DNA of 63,146 bases, the filler included, from Nemertoderma westbladi (Eukaryota; Animalia; Xenacoelomorpha): the NCBI GenBank assembly GCA_032718475.1. It is 4 parts of 4 records of this genome, joined end to end, with 100 filler letters (N's around TTAATTAATTAA, not from the genome) between each part and the next. Parts side by side here need not be neighbours in the genome. Positions count along the whole stretch, not along the records: positions 1 to 25,879 come from JAUCBJ010002276.1; 3 more parts are not named here. One strand, 5' to 3'. The position numbers and the translations under genes were made by a program. Below, one piece after another: positions 946-57,174 of the stretch; the first letter of the stretch is position 1; the number at the start of each line of letters is the position of its first letter. Under the pieces are notes generated by a model. That model had not been told where the DNA came from. It saw nothing but the letters and a program-made list of their open reading frames with translations, and ran no database searches.

Positions 946-954
946 CTCCCCCCC
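946..954 (-). other. Polypurine tract of copy A
   Basis: Minus strand GGGGGGGAG abuts the 3' LTR; same arrangement at 15023-15033 in copy B. Confidence 0.85.
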
Positions 955-1423
955 ATGCTATCTTCCCGGTGAGAAGATAGCATCAACCACTAAGTGCGCT
1001 ACAATTCCGCTGGAAACTCGATCTACTATCGGGTGTGGGGTGGAGTTATTTTCTTGGAGTCGGCTTTCCAGGCCGCTCCCTATGGGTATGATAACGCTAC
1101 CCATCTGACGTCTCGTGTCGAGCCAATTGTGGACTCTCACACAATTTTAAAAGCTCTCCACTATAACTCTAATCTCTCACTCTAACTCCGCTCTTACTCT
1201 CTCCCCACTCTAACTCTCTCCCCACACCTGAATCGCACTCTAACTTCTCTCTCGCCAACAGCTCTTCTCACTATCTCCTCTCTACTCTCTGCCACTCCCT
1301 AAGGCCCTAATCTCTAATGCTACCCCTGTGCTATCATACTATCTACCTACTACTTACTTGCTAACTATCTAACTCTCCTACTCTCTACTAACTCTCCGAC
1401 TCTAACTAGCTCTACTAAGTCTA

Positions 1424-3389
1424 CTACTACTACTACTAGGTCGATCGAACTCGGACAGTGGAAATGAGATCCTTCCAGGCTTCCCGATTCTCCATAGTTG
1501 TCGCAATTTCGTTTCTCCTAAGTTCAGTATCCCTTTCAAGTTGATCTATATATGTTATGGCAGGTCGTCCACGACTACGCTTTCCATGAGTTGGTTGCCA
1601 GAAAAGTAGATCTGGTATGACCTCGTCTTTACTTCGCCAGCAGTGCCCACTGAATCTTAATCTGCGTTCACGGAGGGTGGTTGATACAGGTGGTATTGTA
1701 CCATAAAGCTCGGCGTTTGTCATGTGTTGTCTCCAGCTGATGTTTAGGGCTGCCGTTAGTAGTCTTGTGTAGCAACCATCAATTCGTTGTTCAAGTGATT
1801 TAGTCAGTGTCCAGGTCTCACTCCCATATAAAAATACACTTTCCACTGTGGCTCGAAAGAACTTAGTCTTCAGGTGCCTGGAGAGATCCGATTTCCAGAT
1901 GGTATCCATTTTTGATAGAGCTACCCAAGCCTTTGCTTTCCTCTCTTCTATGTCCTTTTTCTACTCTCTATCCATGATCCAAGGTACTGGAAGTCATCGA
2001 CCTTCCTTAGTTGATTATTATCAATGGTTGTCAAGTTTCCATCAACATTAAAGGTCATGAATTCAGTCTTTGTAGAATTTATATGCAATCCAACCTCCTT
2101 AGCAGCCCTCTCCACTTTATTTACTAGAAGCTGTGCATCTGATAGGGTATTAGAGAGCAGGGCGATGTCATCCGCAAAGTCGGTGTCTGTGACTGTAATT
2201 GCCGGATATCTACTATTTCTGCGTTCTTGAAGTGTGAATCCCAGGTCTTCACCCTTTGTGGCCGTCCTCATTGCGTAATCCAGCACAATTACAAATAGTA
2301 ATGGTGCTAATGTGTCACCTTGCAGTACGCCAGCCAGGATTGAGAAAAACTCAGTTTCACCATCCGGTGAGAGTACCTGCGCTTCTGTGTCACAATATAA
2401 CAATCCAATGCCAGCAACAATTACTTCTGGTATTCCATAAGCTCTTAGGATTTCAAGCATTTTACCTCTATGAATGGAGTCGAATGCCTTCTTGAAGTCC
2501 ACAAAAGTCATGACAGCGGGGAGATTCTTTGACTTAATTCCTTCAATCAGTCTCCGTAGTGCAAGTATCTGAGCTATTGTTGATCTACTTGGTCGAAATC
2601 CGTTTTGGATCTTACGCAGTAGTTTCTCTATGTGAGGCCTAATCCTATATAGAATCATTTTATTGTATATTTTGGCAGCTACCACAAGCAGACAGATCCC
2701 ACGATAGTTCGTTGGTATGCCGAGGTCTCCTTTCTTGGGGAGAGGCTTTAGTTGACCTTTAGTCCAAATTGGTGGTGGCTTTTCCCCTTTTAACATCCGG
2801 TTGCAAACATTCAATAATGGTCTGTTTAGCACTCCGGTTTTCCATACCTCTGCTGGGATTTCATCTAATCCACTCGCTTTATTATTGGACATGTTTTTAA
2901 TGCTTCTTTGGAGTTCGGCAGGTGTGAAGTCCCCTGTTTCTATAGGTAGTGTCTTGTCATGTATTTTCTTTGTAGGGCTGACCTCGATGTTTGGTGGCTT
3001 CCCAAGCAAGTTGCTGAAGTGATTTTTCCACTTCCCAACACGTTCTTCAGGACTATCGGCTTATAGGCGCCCCTTTGCACAACTTTTCCGACCAGATACC
3101 TCATTTACAGTTTGCCAGGTAAGTCTTGATTGTTGCTGTATGTGAGCAGTTGAAATTGCTTCAGTTTTATCCTGTATATACTTTTCCTGGCTGATGTTGT
3201 AGGCCAATTTAAGATCGTCCTTAGCTTTCTCAACCTTGTTAATGTTTTCGGTTGTTGGTTGTTCGGTTTTAACTTTGTAGGTTATCTTAAGATCTTCTCT
3301 CTTACAAGTAACCTCATAGTTTTGCCATGGCACATATTGTTTTCGTTTGGGTTTCTGGGGGATATGCCTCTTAGCTGATTCCTTTTGGG
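1424..3389 (-). mobile_element. 5'-truncated RTE-clade LINE nested in copy A (RT pseudogene)
   Basis: ORFs 3061-3333, 1948-3009 (QNGFR, DFKKAFDS, GVLQGDTLAP, FADD) and 1436-1909 (LYGSETW, RRLRFSGHCWR); (TAG)n tail directly after the stop; 12-bp TSD CTACTAAGTCTA at 1412-1423 and 3390-3401. Confidence 0.92.
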
Positions 3390-4508
3390 CTACTAAGTCT
3401 AACTAACTCCTACTAACTCTCTACTTCTACTAACTCTCTCTAACTCTTACCAACTCTTCTATCTACGTGGCGCTTAGGGTGCCCACAACCCCTCTGCTAC
3501 TACCTCTATCTTGCTACTATCTCTAACTCTACTAACTCTACTTGACTCCTCTAAGTCTACCAACTCTCTAGCCCTTTAACTAGAACTCTTTAACTCTACC
3601 CACTCTTCTAACTACGTGGCGCTTGCGGTTCCCACAACCACTCTACTATCTGGCACCCATGTGCCCGTCTCTACTACTCTACTACCTGGCATCCTATGTG
3701 CCCTCTCTACTACTCTACTACCTGGCACCCTATGTGCCCTCTCTACTACTCTACTACCTCTAACTCTCTAACTCTACTACCTGGCACCCTATGTGCCCGT
3801 CTCTACTATTCTACTCTATCTACATCTTACCCCCTTTACGTCTCCTCGCCTGCACGTGACGCTCTGAGTGCCGGCAGAGTGGGTACGTTAATTATGTGAA
3901 CTACTACTAACTCTTACTAACTCTACTAACTCTCTACTAACTCAACTAATTCTACTACTAAATCTTACTAACTCAACTAACTCTACTACTAACTCTTACT
4001 AACTCAACTAACTCTACTACTAATTTCTTGTGCCCGGCACCTCTTGTGGCCGGCACCCACCCTAATTAACATACCCTGCTCTTACATCAAACACGTCATC
4101 ACGCGCGTGCCCCACTTAGTTCAACGCATCCCCTGTATCATGGCGCTTCCAGTGCCCACAACCTCTCTACTACTAACTCTAACTACGTGGCGCTTGCGGT
4201 GCCCACAACCACTCTACCACTACTTCCATCTATGTGGCGCTTCCGGTGCCCACAACCTCTCTCTGCTCTACTAACTCTACTACCTCTATCTACGTGGCGC
4301 TTTCGGTGCCCACAACCACTCTACTACCCGCCGACTTCTAATCTAACTGTACTAACTTCCTAACTACTACTTAATTTCTGACTTTCTATTTATTTTATTA
4401 TTTAATTATTTTTATTATTTATTTTAATTAAATAATTATTTTTGCGTGGGAAGGGCGTCTCACCCTCATTCCCACCCCCTCAGTCCAAAACATTGGACGA
4501 CTAAAACT

Positions 4509-5780
4509 CTAAGGTGCCCCTTCTTCCAGTAGGCACTCTCCTACTGCCCTCTTATACGTCCTCTTACTCTTCTCCACACTTTCTTCACCAATTCCAACTG
4601 ACCAGGAATTGGTTCTCCCTCTTCCGCCACCCTAAAATCGGGTCTCTCCGCCGCCTTCTTAACTTCCTCGCCTCTTGGCATCAAAATGCTACCTCTCAAC
4701 TTGTCGATCGGCGGTATAATGCCGCCCCTGTTTTCATCCTTAATCTTAGATACTGCCTCTGCTGGCCCCCTTAGTATATGCGCTGGCTTTAAAGGCCTCG
4801 ACGATCCCCGTTTGTTCTTCGGTATACACAACGTCTGCCCATGTAATGCCCCTTCGCACTCTGTCAGTCCCTCGTGCGTATGCAACACGCCTCCTACTTT
4901 CCTGACTCCTTTATTATGTCCACCCACGGGCCTCTCTGCCCCTGGTCTAATCCTCTCACATCCTCTCCCTTTCCATCTTGTCTTCTTACTCGACCTCCCC
5001 CTTGTCGGTATGCCTCTCAACCGGACCGGCGTCTATTCCGGACACTCCTCTGGACTATTGTCCTCCTGACACTCCACCGAACGCTCCTCCGGTTTGTCCT
5101 CCGGACATCTCGCCGTCCGCTCCCCTCCATCTCCATACCGACACTTGTTGGGATATCCATTCTCTCCCACCCACTCTCTAACTGTTACTTCCTCAGGTTG
5201 TACTTTTCTCTTCTTTCTTGCCACTGTCATGCTTATAGCCATTGTTTGGCCTCCAGTCTCAGACTCTCTAGCTGCTGTGTTCTACACTCTCCGGATCTGT
5301 GTCCTTCTACCACACATCGATGACATAGTCCATTTGTGTCTGTGTAGGCTATACGATCTTGTTTGGGCAACGCTTGCCAGTGCTTACAACTCATGGTCTT
5401 ATGGGTTCCGTCCCGATGTAATTGACATTCGAATCCTGGATTATAGCGTTTCCTGTATAGTCCTTCACGTATCGCGCGTAGGTTTATATCTACCGATTTA
5501 GTGTTTTGGTTGTCTGTACTCGGCCTACTGGGTATACTGGGATTGTGTTTATATGTGGTGTTATTTTCTTTCTGTCCCTGCCACGGTGTGGTCCTACTAC
5601 CAGCTAACTGTGGGCTTGTAGCCCCCTGTATGGCCGCGTGTGGTAGCGACTGTCCGCACAACCTGTTCTTGTCCAAGGGGTTCGATGTTCTTGCTCCTAT
5701 TGGGGTATATTGTTGATATTGTGATGGGGGAATGTAATCTTCGCGAATCTCGATTCTCCGCGCGACTACCACACTCTCGA
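4509..5780 (-). pseudogene. Degenerate gag-end, protease-start and integrase-C-terminal remnants of copy A
   Basis: CKHWQALPKQDRIAYTDTNGLCHRCVVEGHRSGEC resembles copy B CSYWQASPREDQVKYAARNDICSRCVMSGHRARQC; LTECEGALHGQTL...LKPAHIL resembles LAKCEGIINSRPL...LTPSHFL; both end in EGAP-stop. Confidence 0.75.
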
Positions 5781-6178
5781 TCGGCAGCTATATCCCGTCT
5801 GGAAGCTTCTCTTCGATCCCCACTGCTGTTCTCGACTTCGTATCGGTACGTCATGTACCCCTCTCTTGGTGTGCGGTGCGTTTCTCCGGGGCGACGGCAA
5901 CTAACTCCATCTCTACTATCGACGGCTCGCTATCCGTCCTCGCTCTCCAGTTGCTTCTAGCAACGACTCTTCTATTATCTTTGCTTCTTCTTTTTTCGAC
6001 CTCTCGGTTAAACTCTACTAATCTTCTCTCTTCTGACTGGGCTCGACGTTCCGTCGCCCGCCCTCTCACGACGTCGACCTGTCTCTCTCTGCTCGACCGC
6101 ACGCCGCTGGGGATACTCGCAATCCCCCTATTATTCTCCATCGCCGGGTGTTGCGGTTTACCTAATTCGGCCCGCGCA

Positions 6179-7864
6179 TTATCCGCCGACGCCTGTGGGA
6201 CACTCTCTGCCCTCCCCCCCCCCCCCCTTCTCGCCACTAATCTCTCGTGGTGGGGCGCCCGTAGCCCCTCCCCCCCACCTGCCGCATCTAACTTCACTAT
6301 CTCTTACTACGATTTTGCGTCCCTCTTGTCGGACACTCTCTACCCCCCCTCTCTCGCCACTAATCTTCCGTGGTGGGGCGCCCGTAGCCCCCCCCCCCCC
6401 CCCCCCCCACTCGCCACATCTAACTTCACTATCTCTTACTCCACTTCTACACCCCTCTCTAGTCGACGCACTGTCTCTACTGCGGTTGGGTCTATTCACC
6501 CCCGCCTCTCTCTCCACTACTGCATGGCCTATCAGGCCCCCCTCGGGTTGACTTAACCCCGCCACCTCCTGCCTACTAACTACGTGGCCTACCAGGCCGC
6601 ACCCTTTGGGTTGGCTCAACCCCGCCATTTCCTGCCTACTAACTACGTGGCCTACCAGGCCCCCGTTGGGGTTTCTCGCCCCCGCCACTCTCTGCGCACT
6701 AACTGCGTGGCCTGCCAGGCCCCCGTTGGGGTTATGCACGTCCGACACGTTCATATTAATAGCACCATTCCCAATATTATCTGTTAGATCAATTAAATCC
6801 CCAAAATCAATTAAATCATTAGAATTTGAAACGGGATTATTATTTAAATTATTATTATTTTCTAAATTTAAATTATTATTCGAATTATTTTGCGCGTTTG
6901 AATTGAAATTATTATTTAGATTATTTGTATTTAAATTTAAATTACTACTACCAGGTAAAATATTTCCTGTAATAAAGGGATTAGGGTTATCTACTACGGT
7001 ACTATTAATACCAACATTTCCTAACGTACTTCTACTACCCCCCCCCCCCCCCCCCCCCCCCCCGCCCGTACAGCTACACCAGTTCTGGTTCTCTCGCCCG
7101 GTGCCTGTAAGTGGGGTCTCACTCTCTGATAGTCCCAACTGCGCCAGTTCTAGTCGGCGCTGATTCAGTTTGGCTTGATATTGCGCAAGCCTCCCTAGCC
7201 GGGCATGCAAATCATCCCGCACGCGTCTACCCTCTATCTCTCTCTCTCGCATACTCTGCTCGGTCAACTCTGCCCCTCTCGCAACCATCTCAAACCGCCT
7301 TGCCAGCTCGCTCTCTACTCTCATCTCCCGCTCTCTACACTCCTCAGCTCTCTCTCCACACTCCTCGGCTCTCTCTCTATACTCCCTTGCCAACTCTCCT
7401 AACCTCTCTAATAATGCGGTTTCCTCTCTCAATTGTCTCTCTAATTCGTTCTGATCTAGCGCCGCACCTCTCAATTTATACGCCAGATTTATCTCCCGCA
7501 CCCTTCTTTCTTTTGCGGAGGATGTAGCAGACTTATCTGTTGCTACAAACTCCCGCCGCCCCTCCGTCCCACTAACTTTCCCCCGCCTCCCGGAACTTCC
7601 TCCGACCAACAAGACCGAATCCTCGGGGTTAACCTCGGATTCACCCTCCTGCGGTCTCCTCCAACCCACTAATTTTACTCCCCGGGCATCGACTGAGTAT
7701 GGCCCTATGTACACTACACTAGGCTGCATACCCCTACACTCCCATAGTTCAAACAGTTCGCTGGCAACCCCTCTCGCTCTCTCGCTGGCTAGTTCTGCCT
7801 GCCCAAAACGCTTTAAATGGTCAAAATATCTGTTCGACTCACCTAGCTGCCTCTTCAACTTCAC
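6179..7864 (-). CDS. Gag-like N-terminal ORF of copy A (coiled-coil, Asn-rich, short repeats); continues after a frameshift in 5851-6297
   Basis: Homologous to copy C ORF 57175-57939 (LFELWECRGM.P.VVYIGPY) and copy B ORF 24654-25733; start codon uncertain. Confidence 0.65.
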   Translation of the reverse strand: MKLKRQLGESNRYFDHLKRFGQAELASERARGVASELFELWECRGMQPSVVYIGPYSVDARGVKLVGWRRPQEGESEVNPEDSVLLVGGSSGRRGKVSGTEGRREFVATDKSATSSAKERRVREINLAYKLRGAALDQNELERQLREETALLERLGELAREYRERAEECGERAEECREREMRVESELARRFEMVARGAELTEQSMREREIEGRRVRDDLHARLGRLAQYQAKLNQRRLELAQLGLSESETPLTGTGRENQNWCSCTGGGGGGGGGGSRSTLGNVGINSTVVDNPNPFITGNILPGSSNLNLNTNNLNNNFNSNAQNNSNNNLNLENNNNLNNNPVSNSNDLIDFGDLIDLTDNIGNGAINMNVSDVHNPNGGLAGHAVSAQRVAGARNPNGGLVGHVVSRQEMAGLSQPKGCGLVGHVVSRQEVAGLSQPEGGLIGHAVVEREAGVNRPNRSRDSASTREGCRSGVRDSEVRCGEWGGGGGGATGAPPRKISGERGGVESVRQEGRKIVVRDSEVRCGRWGGGATGAPPREISGEKGGGGEGRECPTGVGG

Positions 7865-8319
7865 CTGGTCTATCTCGGCCCCTCCTTTCGCTTATCTTAA
7901 CTGCTCCCGGGTCGCGGCGTAGGCTTGTCGGAGCCGGTCTCTGACCCCGACGTCCTCGTCGCTGACATCTCATCTATCCCTCCGGGTCCGGCGTCGTACC
8001 GGCGGCCCCACCGTCGCCATTCCGGTGGGCCGTCCATCGCCCTCGGCCTGTGGCTGGCCGGCAACATCGGTATGTCGACCGCCGTCTTACGTCGACTCGT
8101 CTCTCCCTTCTCGTTGTAGACGGCCCCCCTTCTCTTGGATTGCCGGATCGCTCGTAGTCGACGGATCTAGCGTCGTGGGTCGATACCGTCTCGCCATGCC
8201 CTCGCGGATTGTTAGGTTGTCATCCGGGGTCCGCAGTGGTGTCGTCTCTCTCCCTTGACTCATCTTTACTCTGTCGGTGGCTAGCAGTCACAGTCTCAGG
8301 CAACTTGGGTGTTTGTTAC

Positions 8320-9067
8320 TGTGACGGGAACAAGGGATCCCGATTTATCCGGTTGTTTGTTTACGCGTCCCCGCCGTGTGTAAAAGGAGTTATTGTAGTT
8401 CTTCCGATGTTATTGATAGTATATGTCAGTATGTATATGATATATGAGATAATGAGATAACTGAGTTGGCACAATTGATGATAGTAATAGGCCTAAGTAT
8501 ACAGCAGTACTGATGGATGATGGTGGCGACGACGGTAACAAAGTCACCGTCCTGCCCTAAACTGCACTGAGATAACTGAGTAAAATGACACAAAGACTGG
8601 TAATAGTTCGTTGTTCCAACGTTCTTAATAATATAGGCTAGATAAATATGTGATAGCATATAGACATGAGATAACTGCACTGAGATAACCGGTAATATAG
8701 GTGACGGTGGTGATGGTCTTAACTGTCACCGTACTGCCGTGACTGTACTGGGTAAACTGAATAAATGACACGGTTACCGGTAATATATATATTGCACCGT
8801 TGGCCATATTGCTCACTCAGTCGATGCTTGCCCCCCATTGGCTGATAAACTAATTGTCGCCCTTTCACCTCCCTTGGAGTGTTTCCCCTCGGTGCTGTTA
8901 TTCCCTCTCTCTCAGGGGTGTAACCCCTATTGTGTGTGTGTTCTCTGGGGTTTCTCCGTCCCACTTTGTTGGGGTGACACGAGGTTGATTGATAGTCACC
9001 CTCGTGTTCCCCAATATTGCTTAAGGCTCACTTTATGGGGTGGTTAGCGGAATTGAATAAGCTAACA
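8320..9067 (-). repeat. 5' LTR of copy A
   Basis: TGTGACGGG...GCTAACA, followed by TSD ATTTA; on the minus strand a TATA-like run (about 8782-8792) lies upstream of an Inr-like TCAGTT. Confidence 0.92.
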
Positions 9068-14486: not shown

Positions 14487-15022
14487 TGTGACGGGATCCA
14501 GGAAGGATCCCGGTTTATCCGGTTGTTTAGTTCACGCGTCCCCGCCGTGTGTGAAAGGTAAAAGATTTCCTGTCGTTCGTCGTATATAATAATCGGTATA
14601 TAAAATAGATATAGATATAGTGATAGATTGTTGTACACGGAAGGCGGGTTGACGGTAATTAAGTCCCGGCACTTCCCTAACTAAACCTACTAACCTAGCT
14701 AGCACCAATATGATACTGAGATAACTGAAATGGTACGATTACTGCTAACAGGTTATATCGCACGGGTGGCCTTATTGCTGTACTCATTCGGTGCCTTTCC
14801 CCCCTCTGATTGGTTGATACCCCTGTTGGCGCCCTCTGGAGTGTTCCCCTTCACTCCACCTATTCTCTCTCTGTTAGGGGTTTGGCCCCTGACCCTCATT
14901 GGGTGCTTCTCCTTCCCACTTTGTTGGGGTGACACGAGTTGGTTACTACCCAACCTCGTGGCCCCCAATATTGCTTATCGGCTTAACTTTATGGGGTGTT
15001 AGCGGGATTGAATAAGCTAACA
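14487..15022 (-). repeat. 3' LTR of copy B
   Basis: TGTGACGGGATC...GAATAAGCTAACA, homologous to the copy A and C LTRs. Confidence 0.9.
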
Positions 15023-15725
15023 CTCCCCCCCCCATGCTATCTTCCCGGTGACAAGATAGCATCAACCAGAAAGTGCGCTACAATCCCGCTGGATCCCGAT
15101 CTAGTATCGGGTGTGGGTGCAATTCTTTTCTCTCGGAGCCGGCTTTCCAGGCCACTCCCTATGGGTATGATAACGCTACCCTGTACGCCTGGCGTCCCAT
15201 GTCGGGCCGATCGTGCTTACCTCTCACACGACTTTTGTTTCCCCAACACTTTCGCCCTTGACTCTTCTCTTCTCTCGTACAGACTCTCCTCTCTCTCGCT
15301 CTAACTCTCGGACCTCTCTGTCCCTCACTCAGCCTCTTATTCCTTCCCCCCCCCCCCCACACTAGAATTGCAACCGCACTCTCTCCGCACTCCGCACTAT
15401 TACTTCTTCCCTCAACCCCTCTTTGACTATCTTATCCCTTCTGGCGAATGTCACTCCCCCTCCCGTGCCGTCGCACTCAAGAAGTGTGAAATCGTCTTGC
15501 GTCTCGTCCATAGTCCCATAGTCAGTTGTCCTCCCAGTCCCAGTAGCTAATTGAGAAAGGTTGTATGACTATAGTACTTACTCCGAACGTATGTATTTGT
15601 AGATTATTTATTATTACGTACGTACATACAAATTGCACTTATTTTGATTATTTACATTGATTAAATTTGTATTCAATAGTTTGCACATCTCACATGGCGC
15701 CTTCCAGGCGCACCACATCAAAGTC

Positions 15726-18287
15726 TCAGTCCATCCCTCCTGACCTTGGGAACCCTTCTGTCCCCCTCGAGATGGCTCCCTCCCTGGGTCGCTTCCTGGT
15801 TACTATTGCTCCCCTGGGATCTGCCTTGTGTCTTCGGACTCTCGCCGCCACTTCCTTACTAATCCCGGTGGTTGGCTCCTTGGGTGCCGGTGTTATAAGC
15901 TCCCGGTACCGCTTCGCGGGCGGCCCCTCCGAATGGCCCTGTTGTCTCCCCCTAGTGGCGTCCCATAAAATCGTCTTCATAGCCCGCGGCACATGCTCCG
16001 CCAAGAAATCCCTAAACTCTCCTCTGTTTTGTGGTGTCCACCTATCTAAATACCTCTGCGTATTTATCACCCCGGCAAATGATGCCGCCGTCGCCACTTC
16101 CTGGTAGGTAAACGGAAGTCTCCGTTTGATAATCTCCATGTGGGCCTCCTGATTGATTAGGAAGAAACCCCACTTAAACTCCTGGGCCTTCATACGTTGC
16201 CGAGTCATCGCCCCGACGTCGGCCCATTCTTCGAAGATCATAAACTTCTCTTCGTCGTCCATCCAGTCGCACTGGCGTCCGTAATGTCCCCGAAAGTTAC
16301 ATTTCGAACATCGGTTGTGCAACCGTGGACACGCCCCCATCCTGTGGTTCGACTCTCGGCAGTAGAGACAATAAGTTCCCTTCTGGAACCGATACAAGCA
16401 GTTCTTTTCCTGGTGGGTCTGTCTCCCACAGTAGTCGCAACCGAGTATCAATGTCTCCCGCCCTACATCGTCTTTCGTCCCTAGCGATCTCCGCGGTCTA
16501 TGGAGTCGCTGGTAGGCGAACTTTTGGACGTTAGTGTCCCTGTCTACGTCGATCTCCTCGCTCCTCCCGGGCATCGTCTCCCCAAACACTACCCGTGGTG
16601 CCGTCCCCGGTTGTTCGCCCAACCTGATGGTGCTCCCCGCGAAATCCATTGCCGGTTCCTCGTGCACCCAGGCCCGCTTGCCGGGTTTATTCCAGAAGGC
16701 CCTCGCCCCGCTGGCCGTCACCACTCTCCCGCCAACCCAGTCCGTGTCCGAGTGGCCTATCCTCGCAATAGGCAGCATCTCTCCGAACTCGTCGTCGTCT
16801 TCTTCCTCCTCTCGCAGTGGTTCCAACCCCGGTATCCCGGCGGATCCACTATGTCCCTTCCCGCCTTGGCTCTCGCCCGTAGCTCTCCATCCCTCTAGCT
16901 CCCCAAACTTCCTTAGTGGTTTGTCGCCCTCGGCGCCCGCTGGTATGGGCATCGTTTGCAACCCCAACGTCGACTGTTTCGGTGATCCCACCGTCCACCC
17001 CAACTCTCGCCATAGAGACTCCCCCGAACTCCCTGATGACGCCCAACGAAGTTCATCTAAGGCCGCTTGTTCCTCGAAGCCGTAGCCCTGCGCCCTGGCT
17101 TCCTCCTCTCTTTCCTCTGCTTCTATCCTCTCCCTTCTAGCGACTTCTTCCAGTCGCTTCGCCTCCCGTTTATCCGTCTCTAACTGCTCCCATCTCTGAT
17201 ATGGTGTATTTATCTCCCTGTCTACCAGATGTCGGCTATTGTAGTACACCGACTCGCCCTTCAGCCCCGGGTGGTCTACCAGACCCTTGAAAGCCGTCTT
17301 AAAGGCTCTTCTGTAGCTTAGGGGTAATCCCGATAATAGGAATGCCTTTGGTTCCCTCTTGATAACCACGGTCATGAATAGGTTAAGCAAACCTATCATT
17401 ATCCAGTCCTCTTGAAGGATATATCGCTTCTGATATATCTTTATGGCTGCTCTTTGGAACTGATACACCTCTTGTTTTCCTGGCCTCGCTCCCCACTTCA
17501 GCGAGTTTGCTAGCTCTGCTCCGTACTCTTCTCTGAACTTCCCCCAGTCCGTCGGTTTGTGACATACGAGCCTTAACAACTGGCCCATCGCCACCGCTCC
17601 GCACTGGCCCGTGTTCCTCACTAGTCCCAACCCGTCTGGCACTGTCATAGCCATGAAGACTGTCTGCGTGTCCAGAAGGTTGGGGGTGTCCGGACCGACG
17701 ATCCTCTCCGCGTCGTCGCAAATCGCCAATCCCACCTTCGTCGTCGACTTCTCTCTTACCAAGACTTGCACCGCTTTCGGCAACCGGTTCAACTTCGGCC
17801 CTTCCTTGTTCCCATACGTTCCTAGATCGAATAGGAAAATGTCCCCATTTGGCGCGGCCAAATGTAGGAGTATGGTCCTGGTCGACCCCGCTGATCCTCG
17901 TTTCGAACCCCCCTCGTCTTCCACGGTTCCCTCGTCGTCTAGGATCATATATCCTCCCCTGCTGACGGACTCTACGAACCTCTTCCAATCTTTCTTCGGC
18001 GATTCCCTCGCGTACTTTGGAATCCCGAATTTCTCCTCGTCCCCCTTTACTACGTAGTGGAAGTGCCCGAAGATTGCATTATCCAGCGACGGCGTCCCGT
18101 AGGTCCCGACCAGCCGCTGTTTGTGCGCTTCCCTGAAATGGTCTTGTAGCGGTCGCGCTGCGTGACCCCTCTCCAACCGCTTGTAGTATCCCCTTGTCTT
18201 ATCTTCCGGATGTCTCTTGGTGAAATCCACCAGTATCTCCTTTCCTCCTGACTCTGCCTTTCTCTTTCTGATCAGCTTACTTGCCAT
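15726..18287 (-). CDS. Retrotransposon ORF3: DEDDy/RNase D-like 3'-5' exonuclease domain plus three CCHC zinc knuckles
   Basis: Intact 853 aa; ExoI YMILDDEG, LLHLA..IFLFDL, LP..V..L.....KVG..I.DD (ExoII), LLDTQ, WGARP...QKRYILQED (ExoIII-like); knuckles CDYCGRQTHQEKNC, CLYCRESNHRMGAC, CSKCNFRGHYGRQC. Confidence 0.78.
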   Translation of the reverse strand: MASKLIRKRKAESGGKEILVDFTKRHPEDKTRGYYKRLERGHAARPLQDHFREAHKQRLVGTYGTPSLDNAIFGHFHYVVKGDEEKFGIPKYARESPKKDWKRFVESVSRGGYMILDDEGTVEDEGGSKRGSAGSTRTILLHLAAPNGDIFLFDLGTYGNKEGPKLNRLPKAVQVLVREKSTTKVGLAICDDAERIVGPDTPNLLDTQTVFMAMTVPDGLGLVRNTGQCGAVAMGQLLRLVCHKPTDWGKFREEYGAELANSLKWGARPGKQEVYQFQRAAIKIYQKRYILQEDWIMIGLLNLFMTVVIKREPKAFLLSGLPLSYRRAFKTAFKGLVDHPGLKGESVYYNSRHLVDREINTPYQRWEQLETDKREAKRLEEVARRERIEAEEREEEARAQGYGFEEQAALDELRWASSGSSGESLWRELGWTVGSPKQSTLGLQTMPIPAGAEGDKPLRKFGELEGWRATGESQGGKGHSGSAGIPGLEPLREEEEDDDEFGEMLPIARIGHSDTDWVGGRVVTASGARAFWNKPGKRAWVHEEPAMDFAGSTIRLGEQPGTAPRVVFGETMPGRSEEIDVDRDTNVQKFAYQRLHRPRRSLGTKDDVGRETLILGCDYCGRQTHQEKNCLYRFQKGTYCLYCRESNHRMGACPRLHNRCSKCNFRGHYGRQCDWMDDEEKFMIFEEWADVGAMTRQRMKAQEFKWGFFLINQEAHMEIIKRRLPFTYQEVATAASFAGVINTQRYLDRWTPQNRGEFRDFLAEHVPRAMKTILWDATRGRQQGHSEGPPAKRYRELITPAPKEPTTGISKEVAARVRRHKADPRGAIVTRKRPREGAISRGTEGFPRSGGMD

Positions 18288-18824
18288 TCCGAACTCCGTT
18301 GCTCGCTCACCTGTAAGGTGGTGCCTTACAAAGGCGCAATACAGATGAGTGACAAGTTAAGATGGTCTGTGTTGGTTCGACAATGGCCTATTCCTTACTT
18401 AACTGCGCCTTTCAGCCTAAATTATCACAACTTAATTCTGAAGCTAGTAAATACGCCCTAATTCCGATTTCTGTCAGTTACTTTTATTATGTTCCAGAAT
18501 AACTTTCCTAGTGTTGCCACAATTTGTAACTTTCAGCCCTATTCTATTTATTTTGATTTAATTTTAATCCTACTGTCCTACTACTTACTGTTGCCTATGG
18601 ATTACCTTACTCTCTAATCCACATTCTGGCCTACTCTGTGGGCCTGTCCAGTACAGCAGTATATGTCGCATGGCCTACACAATCTATCCAACTGTACTCA
18701 TATGCCCCCCTCTCACTACTAACTGCTAACTAATATCTATATCTTTAATACCCTTCTACCTCTTGCTCTTACTAACTAGTACTGCGTACTTTCTCACTAA
18801 CTCTTACTCTCTCTTTCTAACTAA

Positions 18825-19220
18825 CTGTCGGTACTACGTACCCTCTAACTACTTACTCTCTCTCTAACGGTACTACGTACCCTCTAACTCTTACTCTCTA
18901 ATGGTACCACGTACCCCTTAACTCCTACTCTCTAACGGTACTACGTACCCTTTAACTCTTACACTCTAATGGTACTACGTACCACCCTCTAACTCTTACT
19001 CTCTAACGGTACTACGTACCACCCTCTAACTCTTACTCTCTAACGGTACTACGTACCACCCTCTAACTCTTACTATCTAATGGTACTACGTACCACCCTC
19101 TAACTCTTACTCTCTAACGGTACTACGTACCCTTTAACTAATTAACTAACTAACTAACTAATGGTACTACGTACCTTCTAACTACTCTAGCTAACTAGCG
19201 GTACTACGTACCCTCTAACT
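18825..19220. repeat. About 33-36-bp tandem repeat between pol and ORF3
   Basis: Repeated CTCTAACGGTACTACGTACC(A)CCCTCTAACTCTTACT. Confidence 0.8.
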
Positions 19221-19356
19221 AATTAACTAACTAACCAACTAACTAACTCTTACTATTTTTTTTTATTTTATTATTTTGTGTGGGAAGGGCGTCTCGCCCT
19301 CAATCCCACCCCCCTCAGTCCAAACTTGGACGACTAAACTCTTCTCTAACTCTAAA

Positions 19357-22300
19357 CTAAGGTGCCCCTTCTAGCAGACAGCATTTCCCTACAGCTCTCC
19401 TATAGGTTTTTCTGTCCTTCGCACCTATCTTGCCACCTATCCGCACTTCTACCGATCGGACTCTTCCGTCTTCATCGGAGTAAGTGCCTACAACTCTCGC
19501 CAACCGCCACTAGTTGTTGATGATGGTATCATCCGTAACGATCACGAGATCTCCCTCTCTTAACTCCCTATTTGACTTCCTCCACTTACTTCTTTTGTGA
19601 AGTGTGGGAAGGTATTCTTCTACCCACCTCCTCCAATACTCTGCGCTTATTGCTTTAGTGACTTTCCAACTTTGACGGGAGTGTATGTCATCTGGGTCTA
19701 CACCCCGCATATCGATGGTCGCTGGCCTTTCCATTAGGAAATGGCTAGGCGTCAGCACGTCTAGTGACTCAGGCTCATCATTCTCTGGATATAGCGGTCT
19801 ACTATTAATGATACCCTCACACTTTGCAAGCACTGTCCTCAAGATGTCCTCCTTGACCATGTGGGTGTTCATTAACTTCGACATTAGACGCTTCGAACTG
19901 CCCACCAGTCTCTCGACGCATCCTAGTGTATGTGGTGCATACGGCGTCCTTCTCTCCCACTTTACTTGTCGTCGTCTCATGGCTGCCCTGACTTCCTCCC
20001 CTTCCAAGATGTCCAAGGCATCTGCCATCTCGTTCTCTGCCCCCACAAAGTTGGTTCCGCTGTTGGAGTACATTACTTTGATCGTCCCACCTTTGCGGTC
20101 TCTGAACCTTTCCAATGCATTTATAAATGCTGATGCGGATGCATCCTGGGCGAGTTCTATCCCTACCGCCCGCGTGTTGTTACAAACAAAGATAATACCG
20201 TAGCGTTTCTCCGTGTGCCGCATCACCTTAATCTTTATCGGCCCGAACATGTCCACACCGCAATGCGTAAATGGCGGGTCGTGCTGTCTTACTCTACTCG
20301 CCGGTAGTGGTGCCATCTCCTGTGTGGCTCGTTCCTTGTTCGCCCGTCTGCAGGTCTGGCACTGCCCCACTACCGCTTTTACCTTCTTCCTCAATTGCTT
20401 GACCCAATAGGTCCTCCTTATCTCCGCGAGGGTTCGGTTGGTGCCCCCGTGCAATATCGACTTGTGGGAGTCCCAGATAATCTGGTGGAGTATTGGCGAT
20501 CCTGTGGGGATGATGATGGGTTTCGGTGGTACCACGATGCTGTTGTTGTATCCCACCCTAGAGTTCATCACTAGAATCCCGTCATCGTTAAGTTGCGGTG
20601 ACAGCGTGATCAGCTCACTGTCTCGTCGAAGGTGCTGTTGCTTACTGACGCGTTCCACTTCGTCGCCATACTTCTTCTGTTGTTCATAGCAGATGACTGC
20701 TCTAGTCGCTCCTTCCAGATCTATGGTTGTCCTGATCTTCTTGTCTTCGCCAACTCCCGCGAGGAAATTCCTGAAGGCTCTCCAGTATGCTACTAATTTC
20801 TTGGTCTTGTACCAACTAGAGCTGTAGCTGAGGAGTTTATCCATTGGGTTATCGCACAGTTCTACGGTTTTGGGTCGCACGTCCCTTATCTCCCTCACCA
20901 TCTGGGAGTATATCTCTTCTCCCTCCGAATCTCCCTCTTCTCCCTCTGATACTACTTCTCCTGAGCCCGGGTCCACCTTTCTCATCGGCGGCCAGGCCTC
21001 CTTGTCGTTCAGAAATTGCGGCCCGTGTTGCCACAATACTTCCTTCTTTGAGAAAGTGTGGCGTGCCACGCCCCTTGATAACAAGTCCGCTGGGTTCTCG
21101 TCCGTTGGGCAGTAGTGCCACCTTTCTAGCTCTGTCGTCGCCCTTATTTCGTCCACTCTGTTTGCGACGAATATAGGATATCGCGTTTTCTTGTTATGTA
21201 GCCAGCCGAACACTACCATGGAGTCCGTCCAGTAGTGTGTCTCCACTATGTTGGGAATAGTGTCCATTATGTAGGCTGTGGCCCTAACTCCTAATCTCGC
21301 AGCTGTTAACTCTAATTTGGGAACTGACGCCGAATCTGGTGGCGTTGACTTTGCCTTGCTGAAGGCAAGTCTGCGTTTGTGAGACCCCTCTCGTTGTACT
21401 AAGTAGAGTGCCGCTCCATATGCCTCTAGTGACGCATCGGAGAACATGTGCAGATCCAGGTTCGTCATGTCCCCATCCGGGAAATACACTCGTGGCATGC
21501 TGTATGTTCCCATCTGCTCTAGACCTTCTGTCCACTTACACCACTGTTTCTTAATCTCTTCTGGTACCTCTTCGTCCCACTCATCTTTCAGCTTGTATAC
21601 TCTCTTGAGTATCTGTTTCCCCGTTACTAGTAGTGGGGATGCTAGGCCTAGGGGATCGTATATTCTTGCTATGTATGACACATAGCCTCTCTTTGTGTGG
21701 ATGTCTGCGCCCTCCTGGCTCAGCTGGTACTTCAGTTCGTCTGTCTCTTTGTTCCACACGATTCCCAGTGCCTTCTGTTGAGACTCTGTTCTCTTATTCG
21801 CCATGTCCTGCCCTTTGGCTGTTGTGGGATTATCCATGGTCGATTCTGGTCTCTCGTCCTCTATCGCTCTGATAAATTCCTGCGAACTGGATTGGAATTT
21901 GGTTAGGTTAAAGCCGGATCCTTTTAGGATGTCGCGAACCTCGCGCCCTGTATCCAGTATCTCTTTAACCGTATTTCCAGATTCCATTCCGTCGTCTAGG
22001 TAGAAGCCGCGTCGAATCATGTCGACGGCCCTATTACTGTATCTATCCTCCTTCCCTTTCACTGTGTCTCTTACCGCCATAGTCGTCGTGAAGGAAGACG
22101 ACTTGGCCCCCATGTTCTGTACTATCATCTTGTACATCGGTATAGTCGACGGTTCTTCGTCGCTGTTGTACCATAAGAAGCGTTGACTATCGCTATCTTC
22201 TTCCGTTACACGGACTTGGTTGAACATGCCTTCTATATCACAGGTGAAGGCGTGTTTCCCATTCCTAAATCTTAGTAGGACCTCGATCCACGAATTGTAG

Positions 22301-23535
22301 ATATTGGGACCCTCCAGTAGATAGTAGTTTAGGCATTTTCCGTTGGTTTTTGCCAACGCATCTACTACCATCCTTAGCTTACCCTTCTTTGGATCTAAAG
22401 CCACGTGGAGTGGCAGGTAATATGTCCTGTCCGTGTTTGGTTTGTCAACCGGTAACTCCACGGCCCATCCTCTCTCGACGTACTTCTTAATAGTTCTGTG
22501 GATGTACTCGTTCTTCTCGGGGCTCCGTTTTAGTGTCTGTTTCAACTTACGAAGCCTCGTGAGTACCATCCCTTTATTATCGGGTAACGGTAGCTTCGGT
22601 AGCTTCCATACAATCCCTATGGTATACCGCCACTCATCGCATGTCATGGACTCCTCTACGCTCCGTTGAGCCTGTTTGTCCTCCACCGAGGTCCCTACCC
22701 CGGTCTCCTTTAATCCCTCAAAATCTTGTTTGAGCAGTCTTTTAAGCTGCTCCTCTGCTCTCTCATCACCCATTTCCTGCATGGTTCCCGCAAACATGCA
22801 TCCTGATGTCTCCGACATCCTAAATGGTATCTTACTCTTGATTGGGCCACTCAGTGTCCACCCGAATGGTGTCAGTATCGCCACTGGGTCACACTCCCTG
22901 TCTTCACCGAAGACCGTTTGCATTCTTTCGTGGGCCATCGGGCAGTCCATTCCTACTATGATGGATACCTTCCTGACGTCCACCTCCGGGATTGAGAAGT
23001 CAATGCTGTCCAGGAATTTATATTGCTTGACCTCGATGTTGGTTGGCCGCCTGGCATTGATGTTAATAGACTCTATCACTTGGATGGGGTCGATGGTTGC
23101 CCCGTAGTCACATCCCGGTGCCACTGCTGCAATCGCGCACCGTCCAGTCCTCATCTCTAGGACCTCGTCTTTGCTAGAGATCGTTGTTACCGCCATTCTA
23201 CTTGGCCTCGTCCTCAATCCTATTTCTTCGGCCACCCAATCCTCAACTAATGTGAAGGCAGCTCCGCTATCAACCAGCATCAGTGTGGTTACCGATCGAT
23301 TGCCTTCCCCAATCACTCGCACTGGTACTACCCCAAGTAGCACCGTTCCTCTTTTCTTCGCCCCTACTGTGCTCGTTGCCATCGTTTGGCCTTTGTTTTG
23401 ACCGAATCTAATGGGGGTCTCCTTGCATTGCCTCGCTCGATGTCCACTCATCACACATCGCGAGCAGATATCATTTCTCGCCGCGTATTTCACCTGATCT
23501 TCCCTGGGTGACGCTTGCCAGTAGCTGCAGTTCAT
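19357..23535 (-). CDS. pol: BEL/Pao Pol polyprotein (protease, RT, RNase H, integrase); probably inactive
   Basis: LVDSGA; FYLDD; FSDAS, PKLEL, WTDS, NPAD; HHCC, VDMFGP, VERLV. Second integrase Asp reads SNSGTNF instead of SDNxTNF; an in-frame TAG at 19510-19512 precedes the natural end at 19357. Confidence 0.93.
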
Positions 23536-23538
23536 GGT

Positions 23539-25879
23539 TCAATGCTTTGCATTTGCATGTAGCTGGCATTTACTCTTTGGGTCGTAGCCGTCCTTGTACA
23601 GCGCATCGCGTATCGCGGTTGCACTTGCATTAAAGTCCCTACTGTTTGGGTTCGGCCTACTGGATGTATTGGGGTTATATTTATTCGTGTTGTTATTTTT
23701 CCCCTGTCCGGTTTCACCCTCGGCTACTTGTGGACTCGCAGTCCCCTGCGTTGCTGCATATGGCAGTGATTGCCTGAGCTTTGGTAATGCATTCGACGTG
23801 TTGTGCTCTGGTTTCGGTCTGTGGTAATCCGTCTTTGGTCCCTTTCCCAGACTATCCTCGCTATAGACTGGATCGGTTATTAATTCAGCTTCATAGCTCA
23901 AGAAGCTCGACATTTCCTATAAACCCGGTTCCGCACCCTTTCTATCTCTAGTGGAGAAAGCAACTCTCCTCCACTTATTGCGCAGCCAGATCAACAGTGC
24001 CTGCGCTATCGTGGTGATGTTGTTCGACGCGTTGAGCTCGTATGGTGCGTCTAGCGTCTTTAGCACGATCAGCATTAGATTAGCACGTCTTAATGCTAAT
24101 GGGATTATCCTGTAGGCCACCCGTCATTATGCCTCTCAGGGTTTGCCTGATGATCTTAGCTGGGTGTCCGTATTCCCAATCCAGTGCCCGCCATGCCGTC
24201 GTGAAGCCGCCTTCTATACCCTGGTATTGCCTCACGATGTCGTATGCTGGGCCTCCTGTGTATACTTGCAGATACTTTAGGCATTCCGCCTGCGTCAAGT
24301 TCTTCGTTAGTATTTTGTTACTATACATGCGCCGAAACTGTAGGTATTCTTCTGGCCTACTCCCATCGAATTTGAATGGTTCCACGGGTGGTAACTCGAT
24401 CCTGGTCTTTAACGCATCGATTAACGTGGCCATCCCCACCACCTGCGCCTCCAATGGGTTTGATGGATGTTGCATAGTTTCTCTTGTTTGGTGCGGTCCG
24501 TCCGTCCTATTTTCTGTCTTTCTCTGGCTTGGGTATATCATTGGGGGTAGCGGCCCCCTCCATATTTCTGTGTCGCACGACCTATTTTCATCCAAGGGGC
24601 TCGTTCCTCTCGCTCCTATTGGGGTATATTGTTGATATTGTGATGGGGGAATGTCACCCTGCCCCCCCCCCCCCCCCCACCGGTATGTTTGGTACTGGGG
24701 TTGATGTTAATATATTGGGGCCCATGCACCTATCCGCAATAATTCCCCCCTCCCCTGGGTATATGTTATATCCTTTGGTGCTGTAGTCATACTGCTGCAC
24801 TGGTACCGGTATAGGCCTATCAGCTTCTGGCCTACCTACCGGAATGTATTCCGCGACTTCAATGTTTAATCCCGGGGTCCGCGCTATCCTATCGCCTACA
24901 TTGCCTCTGTCAGGATGGCCTAAGGTATGTGCAGTAAGGCCTACAGTATGTCCTACAGTCTGTATGTGTTGCTCGGGATCGAAGTTTATTCTTCTCGAAT
25001 AATCCTCCCCGCGGCTACCGTATTCTCGATTGGCAGGTGCATCCCGTCGGAAAGTTTCTCTTCGACCCCCTCTATTGCTCTCATCTTCGTACCGGTACAT
25101 CATGTACCCCTCTCTCGACGCATAGTGTGCCTCGTCGGGTCGCGTCTCTCCGGGACGACGGCAATCTCCCGAAGCTCGACCCCACCGACTTTCTCCCTCT
25201 ACCTCAACTACCGACGGCTCGCTGTCCGTCCTCGCTCTTCTATCGTTCGCGGAGATACTCCTCCTACTGTCTTCTCTTCTTCTTCTTTCAGTGCAGTATT
25301 CCCGCTCATGAGATCTCTCGTCGACCTCCCGGTTAAACTCCACTGTTCTTCTTCCCTCTTCTGATCGGGCTCGACGCTTCGTCCGCCCTCTCGCGATGCC
25401 AACCTGCTTCTCTCTGCTCGATCGCACGCCGCTGCTGATACTCGCAATCCCCCTATTACTCTCCGTTGCCGGGTGTTGCGGTTTACCTAATTCGGCCCGC
25501 GCATTATCCGCCGACGCCTGTGGGACACTCTTTGCCCCCTCCCTCTCGCCACTAACCTGTTGCGGGGCTCCTGTAGCCCCCCCACACCCGCCACATATCA
25601 CGCCGCAGCTTCTTACTTCACTTCTATACCCCTCTCCAGTCGACACAATGTTTCTATTGCGGCTGGGTTCGCTTACCCCTGCCTCTCTCCCCACCATTAT
25701 TTGGCCTGTCGGGCCTATTCCGGGTTGGCTCAACCCCGCCGCCCCCGGCCTACTATCTACGTGGCCTACCAGGCCGACCGTCGGCTCGGCTCGACCCCGC
25801 CACCTCCGGCCTACCGACTACGTGGCCTACCAGGCCCTCTCCCGCCGGGCCACGCACGTCCGACGCGTTCACATTAATA
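23539..25879 (-). pseudogene. gag: BEL/Pao gag, interrupted by frameshifts and stops
   Basis: Fragments 24654-25733, 24080-24595 (LPPVEPFKFDG..EEYLQF, capsid/DUF1759-like), 23917-24120, 23539-23913. Confidence 0.85.
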
Positions 25880-25979
25880 NNNNNNNNNNNNNNNNNNNNN
25901 NNNNNNNNNNNNNNNNNNNNNNNTTAATTAATTAANNNNNNNNNNNNNNNNNNNNNNNNNNNNNNNNNNNNNNNNNNNN
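25880..25979. other. Artificial contig spacer (N-run, TTAATTAATTAA, N-run)
   Basis: Same 100-nt design at 50133-50232 and 58769-58868; stops in all six frames. Confidence 0.95.
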
Positions 25980-41775: not shown

Positions 41776-41807
<32 letters not shown>

Positions 41808-55892: not shown

Positions 55893-55894
55893 GA

Positions 55895-56863: not shown

Positions 56864-57174
56864 GTGATAAGATACCCAAACTCTAACTGCCAGCTCAGAG
56901 ACTAAAGATGAGTCGAGAAAGAGAGACGACGCCGCCGCGGACCCCAGACGGCGATCTAACAATCCGCGAGGCCGCGACGCGACAGTACCGACCCACGACG
57001 CCGGATCTGTCGACCAAAGGCGATCCGGCAATCCAAGCGGAGGGGGGCCGTCTACAATGAGAGGACGAGTCGAGAGAGGAGAGAGACGAGTCGACACACG
57101 ACGGCGGTCGACCTGCCGATGTCGCTGGCCAGCCACAGGCCAAGGGCGACGGACGGCCCACCGGAACAGCAACG

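Follow-up and report, generated by a model that had tools for sequence, protein, structure and literature searches.

The window analysed here (63,146 nucleotides of Nemertoderma westbladi DNA, filler included) holds a BEL/Pao LTR retrotransposon that carries, between pol and the polypurine tract (PPT), a third gene, ORF3 (Table 1). A preliminary description of the window had placed an open sense-strand frame of 853 residues there, and both the ORF call and the layout of the element confirm it: ORF3 has the same sense as pol and is read from 18287 to 15726, 3' of pol and 5' of the PPT. Assignment of the element to the Belpaoviridae agrees with the order of its pol domains (protease, RT, RNase H, integrase), with the presence of Peptidase_A17 (E 1e-41), DUF5641, DUF1759 and an integrase zinc domain, and with a 3' LTR and a PPT of the sizes given for the family (0.2–1.2 kb and ~10 nt, respectively). 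A metagenome search for relatives of pol returned none.

Table 1. Features discussed in the text, with positions counted along the window
Feature	Position	Strand	Remarks
Sister element	330..9067	-	Both LTRs, 5-bp target duplication, LINE inserted; ORF3 missing entirely, pol for the most part
3' LTR	14487..15022	-	TG...CA, 536 bp
Focal-LTR site homologous to the sisters' predicted self-primer	14655..14668	-	Third sequence variant; partner site lost in gap
Polypurine tract	15023..15033	-	11 nt
ORF3, non-env accessory gene	15726..18287	-	Open, 853 aa; basis: ORF call, purifying selection between copies
Three CX2CX4HX4C zinc knuckles	16269..16439	-	ORF3 aa 617-673
Highly charged segment	17043..17225	-	ORF3 aa 355-415, 51% K/R/D/E
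Segment spanning ExoI-ExoIII motifs	17334..18014	-	Basis: remote exonuclease-fold evidence and motif columns
ExoIII region Y289-ILQ-E293-D294 (YILQED)	17406..17423	-	Glu on conserved Asp column, Asp next
ExoII D192	17712..17714	-	Invariant column; sole variant among copies silent
ExoI motif D117-x-E119	17931..17939	-	Columns invariant in 55/55 references; copies differ only silently
Tandem repeat, spacer between pol and ORF3	18767..19248	.	34-37 bp units
End of gag and pol (protease, RT, RNase H/Peptidase_A17, integrase, DUF5641)	19357..23538	-	One stop at 19512
gag	23539..25817	-	At least 3 pieces; DUF1759 in 24706-24080
Assembly gap	25880..25979	.	Takes out 5' LTR and primer-binding site of focal copy
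Second sister element	56284..58768	+	5' LTR and gag start; ends at gap

ORF3 and its copies

Downstream of the motif-bearing segment, ORF3 continues through a highly charged segment and a low-complexity linker, reaching ~aa 610, into three exact CCHC knuckles (16439–16398, 16370–16329 and 16310–16269), which the preliminary description had put at about 16440–16270. These match zf-CCHC_4 weakly (E 0.046), and the region falls with CCHC clusters of the ESM Atlas at 0.83–0.88, which we treat as a lead only. Hallmarks of Env (a signal peptide, glycosylation sites, a Cys-rich ectodomain and a C-terminal membrane anchor) were sought in ORF3 and were not found: its N-terminus is basic, 9 of its 12 cysteines lie inside the knuckles, and its peak hydropathy (1.46 in a 19-residue window) coincides with the predicted ExoIII helix. 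Because there are 0 N-glycosylation sequons and the top hydropathy window lies inside an exonuclease-domain helix, nothing about ORF3 is env-like, and the earlier statement that it has no obvious signal peptide or fusion-protein features stands. An AT-rich stretch with AATAAA at 15612–15607 follows the stop codon. As a splice acceptor before the ATG, the CAG at ~18313–18311 is a guess only, since it stood out from no others of the spacer. No RNA run was among the listed matches of sequencing runs to the ORF3 element.

Contigs from four runs in three studies fill 30 of 30 bins of a stretch that runs from the LTR across ORF3 and reaches the spacer upstream of it, with thousands of contigs of the ORF3 region at 90–99% identity. 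Variants between these other copies comprise 28 silent and 4 replacement changes in 331 bases, against a silent share of 34% expected by chance (p 6e-10, omega ~0.07); no stop or indel is among the variants listed, and codons D117, D118, E119 and D192 vary solely by silent changes. The dN/dS comparison called for earlier shows directly that the gene is under selection; its function is therefore real, and ORF3 is no passenger. The window copy is open but probably decaying, since over codons ~107–216 (~110 codons) it shows 7 private replacements and 0 silent differences from at least 90% of the other copies. It had also been described as intact beside a disrupted gag and pol. ORF3 is indeed open, gag is fragmented and a stop interrupts pol, but pol of the same copy is itself open over 1342 codons; preferential preservation of ORF3 is not supported, because the chance of 0 lesions in 2.56 kb, given at least 4 in 6.46 kb, is 0.26.

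A one-off insertion, which the preliminary description had named as fatal to its own reading, or a recent capture of a host gene by the window copy, could be argued from a tblastn search that found no ORF3 in the two sister elements of the window, from the AT-rich stretch and AATAAA after the stop, and from the short contigs of the other copies, which leave the linkage of pol and ORF3 beyond their reach. Yet one sister arose by deletion and is short of most of pol as well, and the other breaks off at a gap; contigs of all three studies cover ORF3, the variation among copies is mostly silent, and the base composition of ORF3 (A 0.28, G 0.35) matches that of pol (A 0.32, G 0.29); we regard such an origin as extremely improbable. 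The captured host gene proposed earlier fared no better, with no donor, no relative found and this pol-like composition. Protein searches gave 0 homologues among 1510 candidates for aa 90–330 and 0 among 688 for aa 80–336, no relatives were found in metagenome or viral contigs, plasmids or phages, and exact look-up found 0 of 3 proteins. Three matches of aa 1–360 to representative proteins, each of 32–34 residues to repeats, were set aside; two of the three were inspected and are repeat proteins. Because the searched collections hold few animal transposons, these blanks do not show absence.

Evidence for an exonuclease fold

Searches against families gave no sign of the exonuclease domain that the preliminary description had read in ORF3. 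In the Pfam check proposed there, PF01612 had no match up to E 10, let alone at the gathering score; NCBIfam, PHROGs and a PDB sequence search did not detect the domain; HMMER profiles found nothing significant (best E 0.11), nor did a WRN-like-only profile (z 0.6). An NCBIfam match to RimP scored 17.5 bits where the cut-off is 159 and was discarded. The ESM Atlas, by comparison, gave best matches of 0.93–0.95 for the exonuclease region, with 24 of 30 matches in PF01612-bearing clusters (PF01612 being on 34% of the members of the cluster displayed). With hhalign, ORF3 aligned to 22 bacterial and viral PF01612 sequences at E 1e-4 (probability 57%) and to 55 of them at E 3e-5 (probability 73%), at z ~11 against 60 and 80 shuffles. 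Reversed and shuffled controls scored far below ORF3 in the profile comparison. Counting against the fold, one natural decoy, taken from pol, reached 27.8 where the ORF3 query had 35.6. The significant local alignment spans only ~102 columns (ExoI–ExoII), ExoIII being placed by global alignment, and identity to the PF01612 references is ~16–22%.

The unaided AlphaFold model of ORF3 was uninformative (pLDDT 37.6), and structure searches with it were empty (best Z 4.8). A second model, partly circular in that an alignment to DEDDy enzymes served as its guide, reached pLDDT 72.7 and pTM 0.70 and matched DnaQ-like folds only (Z up to 13.9, rmsd 3.0, 161 aligned). Scores within the fold were tied (Nibbler Z 13.2, EXD1 Z 11.9), Egalitarian as well as EXD1 was among the matches, and the top Foldseek match was T. 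brucei RNase D (E 8e-5). The proposed check by AlphaFold and Foldseek therefore came out DnaQ-like for the guided model and failed for the unaided one.

At the level of single residues, D117, E119, D192, W265 and Y289 occupy, in preserved order, five columns that are invariant in 55 of 55 references, and K184, D206 and Q286 lie on near-invariant ones. ORF3 thus has the ExoI D-x-E and the ExoII D of DEDDy (PF01612) enzymes. ExoIII departs from the expected Y-x3-D: as described earlier, the window copy reads YILQED at 17423–17406, which puts Glu293 four residues after Y289 on a column held by Asp in 55 of 55 references. His142 occupies the column of an invariant Gln, and insertions of ~14–20, 17–20 and 12 residues separate the motifs. 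A literature search for what becomes of such enzymes when the ExoIII Asp is replaced by Glu found no paper. Because of Glu293, the sequence does not support a catalytically intact enzyme.

The N-terminal region of ORF3 is very probably a DnaQ-like (DEDDy) exonuclease fold, as predicted from profile comparison and modelling. The earlier domain call is upheld by ESM, hhalign and the five invariant residues, and not by Pfam, HMMER, the unaided fold or the ExoIII Asp; the outcome named as refuting it, no DnaQ-like fold in profile or structure searches, did not occur. The domain might instead match these motifs by chance, ORF3 then being a knuckle-bearing RNA-binding accessory protein of other origin. 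The blank searches of Pfam, NCBIfam, PHROGs and PDB sequences, the low pLDDT of the unaided model and the low identity to references would suit such a protein, but two independent remote methods agree, the five invariant residues stand in order and the controls score far lower, which makes it very unlikely.

Predicted self-priming in sister elements

In both sister elements, the sequence that begins directly 3' of the 5' LTR is complementary to a homologous site within the LTR, at 12 of 12 positions in one and 13 of 13 in the other: the predicted self-primer at 8548–8535 pairs with 8319–8308 in the first, and that at 56624–56638 pairs with 56864–56876 in the second. The helix covaries between the sisters, with three compensatory substitutions and one compensated insertion, and its perfect pairs from the first base (8 and 9) were matched by 5 of 500 and 3 of 500 shuffles. 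Judged by the missing TGG start, neither sister has a tRNA-type primer site. Complementarity between the primer site and a segment of the element's own LTR is seen in the two sisters only. In minimum-energy folding of the R-U5-primer region the helix has pair probabilities of 0.04 and 0.42 in the sister copies, and the duplex energy of the copy with 0.04 was reached by 20 of 300 shuffles; because of these values, the case for self-priming rests on the covariation. The lineage appears, from sequence, to use a self-primer in place of a tRNA. This signature of the sisters was overlooked in the preliminary description, and the accessible literature yielded no BEL/Pao self-priming case.

Possible functions of ORF3 and known systems

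The preliminary description had suggested that the enzyme may trim or degrade small RNAs, proofread, or process the genomic RNA. We favour, at a probability of roughly 0.4, the reading that this multi-copy BEL/Pao family has in ORF3 a conserved accessory gene whose product, with its predicted DEDDy fold and its CCHC knuckles, shortens RNA of the element from the 3' end. The knuckles would bind single-stranded RNA and feed the nuclease, as in trypanosome RNase D, and the trimming would take place during replication. The protein would act in trans, given that one of the sisters transposed and has no ORF3. The most specific substrate on offer would be the self-primer, whose 3' end needs an exact stop at the duplex edge; DEDDy-type nucleases stall at such an edge. 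That the lineage dropped tRNA priming for self-priming and matures its primer with its own exonuclease-knuckle protein nevertheless seems improbable. The self-priming helix is seen in sisters without ORF3, and the focal primer site lies in the gap. The primer end of Tf1 is made by RNase H. The accessible texts on self-priming elements mention no exonuclease ORF (PMC4600332, PMC6317226), so that an exonuclease is not required for self-priming. Against trimming in general stand Glu293 and His142, as well as the ~300 residues between nuclease and knuckles, compared with fewer than 30 in RNase D. Nor does the type of ORF3 show a clear link to copy number in rotifers, as far as the accessible part of PMC5408684 goes.

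The same fold and knuckles would serve an active counter-silencing nuclease that degrades or mis-trims host piRNAs or siRNAs aimed at the element, as the fold relatives include small-RNA trimmers (Nibbler, EXD1) and a sister that transposed without ORF3 fits a trans-acting helper. We find this doubtful: an omega of ~0.07, measured on the core, suits a fixed biochemical task over an arms race, and piRNAs, usually methylated at the 3' end, resist trimming. A weakened or dead nuclease acting with the knuckles as an RNA-binding scaffold, in the manner of Egalitarian or EXD1, for export, localisation or packaging of genomic RNA is a questionable alternative too. Glu293 in ExoIII, His142 in the place of Gln, the inter-motif insertions and the presence of Egalitarian and EXD1 among the fold matches speak for it, and inactive DEDD derivatives occur in piRNA pathways (accessible text of PMC5408684); yet three of the four acids and the Tyr are retained, copies differ at the ExoI and ExoII codons by silent changes alone, D294 could serve one residue after E293, and rotifer ORF3s with a D-to-E variant (DEED) were judged intact (same text).

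The knuckles point to RNA as the likely substrate and open the way to a clean test in vitro; if self-priming holds, it would be a departure from the tRNA priming of BEL/Pao elements and would give the enzyme a concrete job. More broadly, exonuclease cargo in the env slot, known from gypsy-type elements of rotifers, is extended to a second family of LTR elements, although the surprise is limited because DEDDy ORF3s are, as a general idea, already published.

The rotifer precedent cited in the preliminary description was borne out by the accessible text of PMC5408684. A family-wide, selected, non-env ORF3 with a predicted DnaQ-like domain and CCHC knuckles is supported by the present data. The nematode precedent cited beside the rotifer one was not found in the literature searched, the Cer1 CERV paper (PMC10309623) containing 0 mentions of 'exonuclease', and a literature search covering sources outside Repbase and subscription journals for an exonuclease ORF in BEL/Pao turned up nothing beyond the study on rotifers and reviews that refer to it. 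As described in that study (PMC5408684), ORF3s of Juno and Vesta, which are LTR retrotransposons of bdelloids, and of Athena/Terminon are likewise enzyme-derived, non-env, in the env position and equipped with an RNase D-like DEDDy domain in which one catalytic Asp has become Glu, function being predicted in both cases. Their hosts are gypsy-type, as compared by description, whereas ours is BEL/Pao; Glu replaces the last acid here, in contrast to their DEED; CCHC knuckles go unmentioned in the accessible text, against three here; and strong purifying selection is shown for the present ORF3.

The T. brucei RNase D TbRND (PDB 7c42 series) also joins a DEDDy exonuclease to tandem CCHC knuckles, on which both its binding of RNA and its efficiency in cleavage depend (PMC7797062, accessible part), and the knuckles of ORF3 match it weakly in sequence (E 0.15). 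It is, however, a cellular enzyme of the mitochondrion, its knuckles number four and its linker has 28 residues, whereas ORF3 has three knuckles, a ~300-residue linker and ~19% identity; the joining is probably convergent. Belpaoviridae with an env-like third gene share the order LTR-gag-pol-third gene-PPT-LTR and an identical pol domain order (PMC8742986), but the focal element exceeds 11 kb against 4.2–10 kb in that profile, its third gene is without env features, and the 18-nt site for tRNA-Arg or tRNA-Gly contrasts with the self-complementary site of the sisters. Dada DNA transposons also bear a DEDDy exonuclease, with proposed 3'-end processing, inside a DDE transposase and with all four acids kept (PMC3706591), whereas here it would be a separate retroelement ORF. 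The sisters have in common with the self-priming Tf1/Sushi, Tj1, Tcn1 and TAR a primer site that matches, as its complement, LTR sequence of the same element; those, by the accessible texts (PMC4600332, PMC6317226), are gypsy or copia elements, unlike the BEL/Pao sisters described here.

Layout of the BEL/Pao element and its relatives

The focal element is assigned to BEL/Pao by Pfam matches to Peptidase_A17 (E 1e-41), DUF5641, DUF1759, the protease, the reverse transcriptase and the integrase zinc domain, which follow one another in the expected order. Its 5' LTR is missing, falling in the gap, its gag is broken into at least three pieces, a stop codon lies at 23541, and pol has 1342 open codons before it meets a stop at 19512, 51 codons short of its end. 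About 690 bases separate ORF3, the open frame in the env position, from a purine tract of 11 bases, behind which comes the LTR. The preliminary description had stressed that ORF3 is intact in a copy with disrupted gag and pol, but an open ORF3 next to a disrupted gag is no surprise (p 0.26 given four lesions).

Positions and strands of the principal features
Feature	Position	Strand	Basis or remark
Focal LTR retrotransposon	gap 25880-25979 down to 14487	minus	Pfam domains of pol/gag, LTR
pol-ORF3 spacer	~1.07 kb		contains tandem repeat
ORF3	18287-15726	minus	853 aa, open
3' LTR	ends 14487	minus	536 bp, TG...CA
Sister element 1	9067-330	minus	both LTRs, 5-bp target duplication
Sister element 2	from 56284	plus	truncated by assembly gap
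Candidate self-primer pairing, sister 1	8548-8535 with 8319-8308	minus	complementarity
Candidate self-primer pairing, sister 2	56624-56638 with 56864-56876	plus	complementarity

Two related (sister) elements, 70-80% alike, lie in the window. Sister 1 lacks most of pol, apart from its end, and has no ORF3, but retains the 3' untranslated part; since it nevertheless has a target duplication, ORF3 is dispensable in cis. Comparison of its two LTRs gives 97% likeness for the last 496 bases but only about 81% for the first 102; the 3' LTR also falls about 130 bases short of the 5' LTR in length, and these differences suggest that an LTR is recombinant. Inserted in the purine-rich spacer of sister 1 is a fragment of a LINE-type reverse transcriptase (1436-3380, minus).

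Several smaller features accompany these elements. The unit of the focal tandem repeat (18767-19248) contains a short palindrome, so that the stretch from pol to ORF3 could fold into successive hairpins, and sister 1 carries a different repeat at the equivalent place (about 3400-4400). A possible internal polyadenylation signal, AATAAA at 15607-15612 (minus), lies about 115 bases past the ORF3 stop in AT-rich sequence, and a short inverted repeat (hairpin) directly precedes the terminal CACA of all LTRs (14487-14515, 8320-8345, 56838-56863). Elsewhere, the window, whose gene content is eukaryotic, holds an intronless host C2H2 zinc-finger gene (10480-12690, minus; about 19 repeats of 28 residues), an intronless NOC4 (CBF/Mak21) homologue (45977-47557, plus), LINE pieces, a broken gypsy-like gag-protease-RT fragment (54565-56282, plus) that the LTR of sister 2 abuts, a possible foldback element or MITE (44552-45765) with long inverted repeats of 10-base units at its borders (84 nt, 95%), and satellite arrays at 29200-34100 (27-base unit), 40613-43713 (315) and 48485-50130 (29).

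Domain composition of ORF3

The non-env character of ORF3 stands: its N-terminus is basic, it has no N-glycosylation sequon, and its highest hydropathy window is 1.46. Three exact CX2CX4HX4C knuckles occupy aa 617-673, as had been described.

The exonuclease assignment fared less evenly. Searches of Pfam, NCBIfam, PHROGs and PDB sequences gave no exonuclease match, and no sequence relative of ORF3 was found in the protein, metagenome/viral contig or plasmid/phage collections searched. In its favor, an ESM Atlas query with aa 85-345 gave top scores of 0.93-0.95, with 24 of 30 matches in PF01612-bearing clusters and six in unnamed ones. Against PF01612 proteins of bacterial genomes, hhalign returned E 1e-4 (22 sequences) and E 3e-5 with 73% probability (55 sequences from 88 loci, the remainder being redundant or unparsed), about 11 SD over shuffled controls (60 and 80 shuffles); one of 13 natural decoy windows scored 27.8, versus 35.6 for the ORF3 domain. 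With two broad HMMER profiles the domain ranked top among 1102 decoys, yet at E 2.4 and 0.11; it was only third with a WRN-like profile, with which alone hhalign was flat. D117 and E119 (ExoI), D192 (ExoII), W265 and Y289 (ExoIII region) align to columns invariant in all 55 references, whereas E293 and H142 fall on columns that are Asp and Gln, respectively, in every reference, and the inter-motif gaps (75, 73 and 24) are longer than in any reference (57-61, 53-56 and 12). Unaided, AlphaFold was uninformative (pLDDT 37.6); guided by the reference alignment it reached 72.7 and matched exclusively DnaQ-like folds, a partly circular test. A DEDDy-type fold is thus predicted with high confidence for the N-terminal domain, and catalytic activity with distinctly less, though we lean towards it. 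A Mollyvirus exonuclease domain (BTJB01000001.1, 244580-245803) has Drosophila Egalitarian as its closest solved relative (E 3e-19).

Spread and selection among copies

About one fifth of ORF3 words are present in three sequencing runs from two studies, and at 80% likeness four runs (three studies) yield 8473, 5691, 5033 and 149 matching contigs, which cover all 30 bins of the region that starts in the LTR, includes ORF3 and reaches the spacer; as these contigs are short, we infer the linkage to pol in other copies. The 12 indels listed of 109 all lie outside ORF3. Across 17640-17970, where the variant table is complete, there are 39 variants and no indel. Classed one at a time, the 32 that segregate among other copies comprise 28 silent and four replacement changes (p 6e-10 against an expected 34% silent; omega about 0.07), so ORF3 is under purifying selection across the family, a family trait rather than a one-off insertion. 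At the remaining seven, at least 90% of copies disagree with the window copy; each is a replacement, and none lies at a candidate catalytic residue. The window copy is therefore probably decaying, albeit open. This split is biased, since silent sites vary within the family and rarely reach 90%; all 39 variants pooled still give omega about 0.2 (p 2e-6). The best-supported 29 ORF3 variants, a choice that favors private changes, comprise 14 silent and 15 replacement. The family has a real, selected, non-env ORF3 with CCHC knuckles and a probable DEDDy fold.

Candidate self-priming and a proposed role for ORF3

A TGG start is absent after the 5' LTR in both sisters. Instead, the bases there, from base 1 onwards, exactly complement a segment of the LTR lying 215-225 bases upstream, with 8 and 9 perfect initial pairs (equalled by 5 and 3 of 500 shuffles), a 2-base bulge and four further pairs. 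The segment is homologously placed in both, and every pair holds through three compensatory substitutions and one compensated insertion, crossed pairings failing, a covariation between two sequences. Whole-region folding favors the helix no more than weakly, and the focal LTR (14668-14655) carries a third variant of the site. These sequences make the sisters candidates for self-priming like that of Tf1-like elements.

We favor, at roughly 40%, a predicted nuclease acting on the element's own RNA: the knuckles would hold single-stranded RNA and present its 3' end to the nuclease, the self-primer being the most specific candidate substrate. DEDDy-type nucleases typically stop at duplex edges, and Tf1 cuts its primer with RNase H. 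That ORF3 is instead a counter-silencing nuclease is less likely; it would share the predicted fold and the knuckles. A dead-nuclease scaffold, given the same odds, would fit the Glu at the ExoIII Asp column, while the three other acids and the Tyr match invariant columns. If confirmed, a link between self-priming and ORF3 would make the finding more significant than an exonuclease alone.

Among precedents, the accessible text of PMC5408684 describes DEDDy ORF3s in gypsy-type Juno and Vesta elements and Terminons of bdelloid rotifers, including a DEED variant, with activity not shown there; this is the sole case repeated in the available parts of three reviews (PMC5718144, PMC6431247, PMC6338049). 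The nematode case also named in the preliminary description was not found in our literature search, and 'exonuclease' does not occur in the main text of a BEL/Pao survey (PMC3118150). Dada transposons carry a DEDDy domain, according to the portion available (PMC3706591). Our search found no description of self-priming in BEL/Pao, and the accessible part of PMC3601003 adds nothing further on its priming. Whereas the ICTV profile gives tRNA-Arg or tRNA-Gly for the BEL/Pao primer site (PMC8742986), that of the sisters is self-complementary, the signature described for Tf1-like elements in the excerpts available (PMC4600332, PMC6317226). ORF3 in turn shares its predicted exonuclease and its knuckle modules with T. 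brucei RNase D, for which the accessible text reports knuckle binding and delivery of RNA to the nuclease (PMC7797062).
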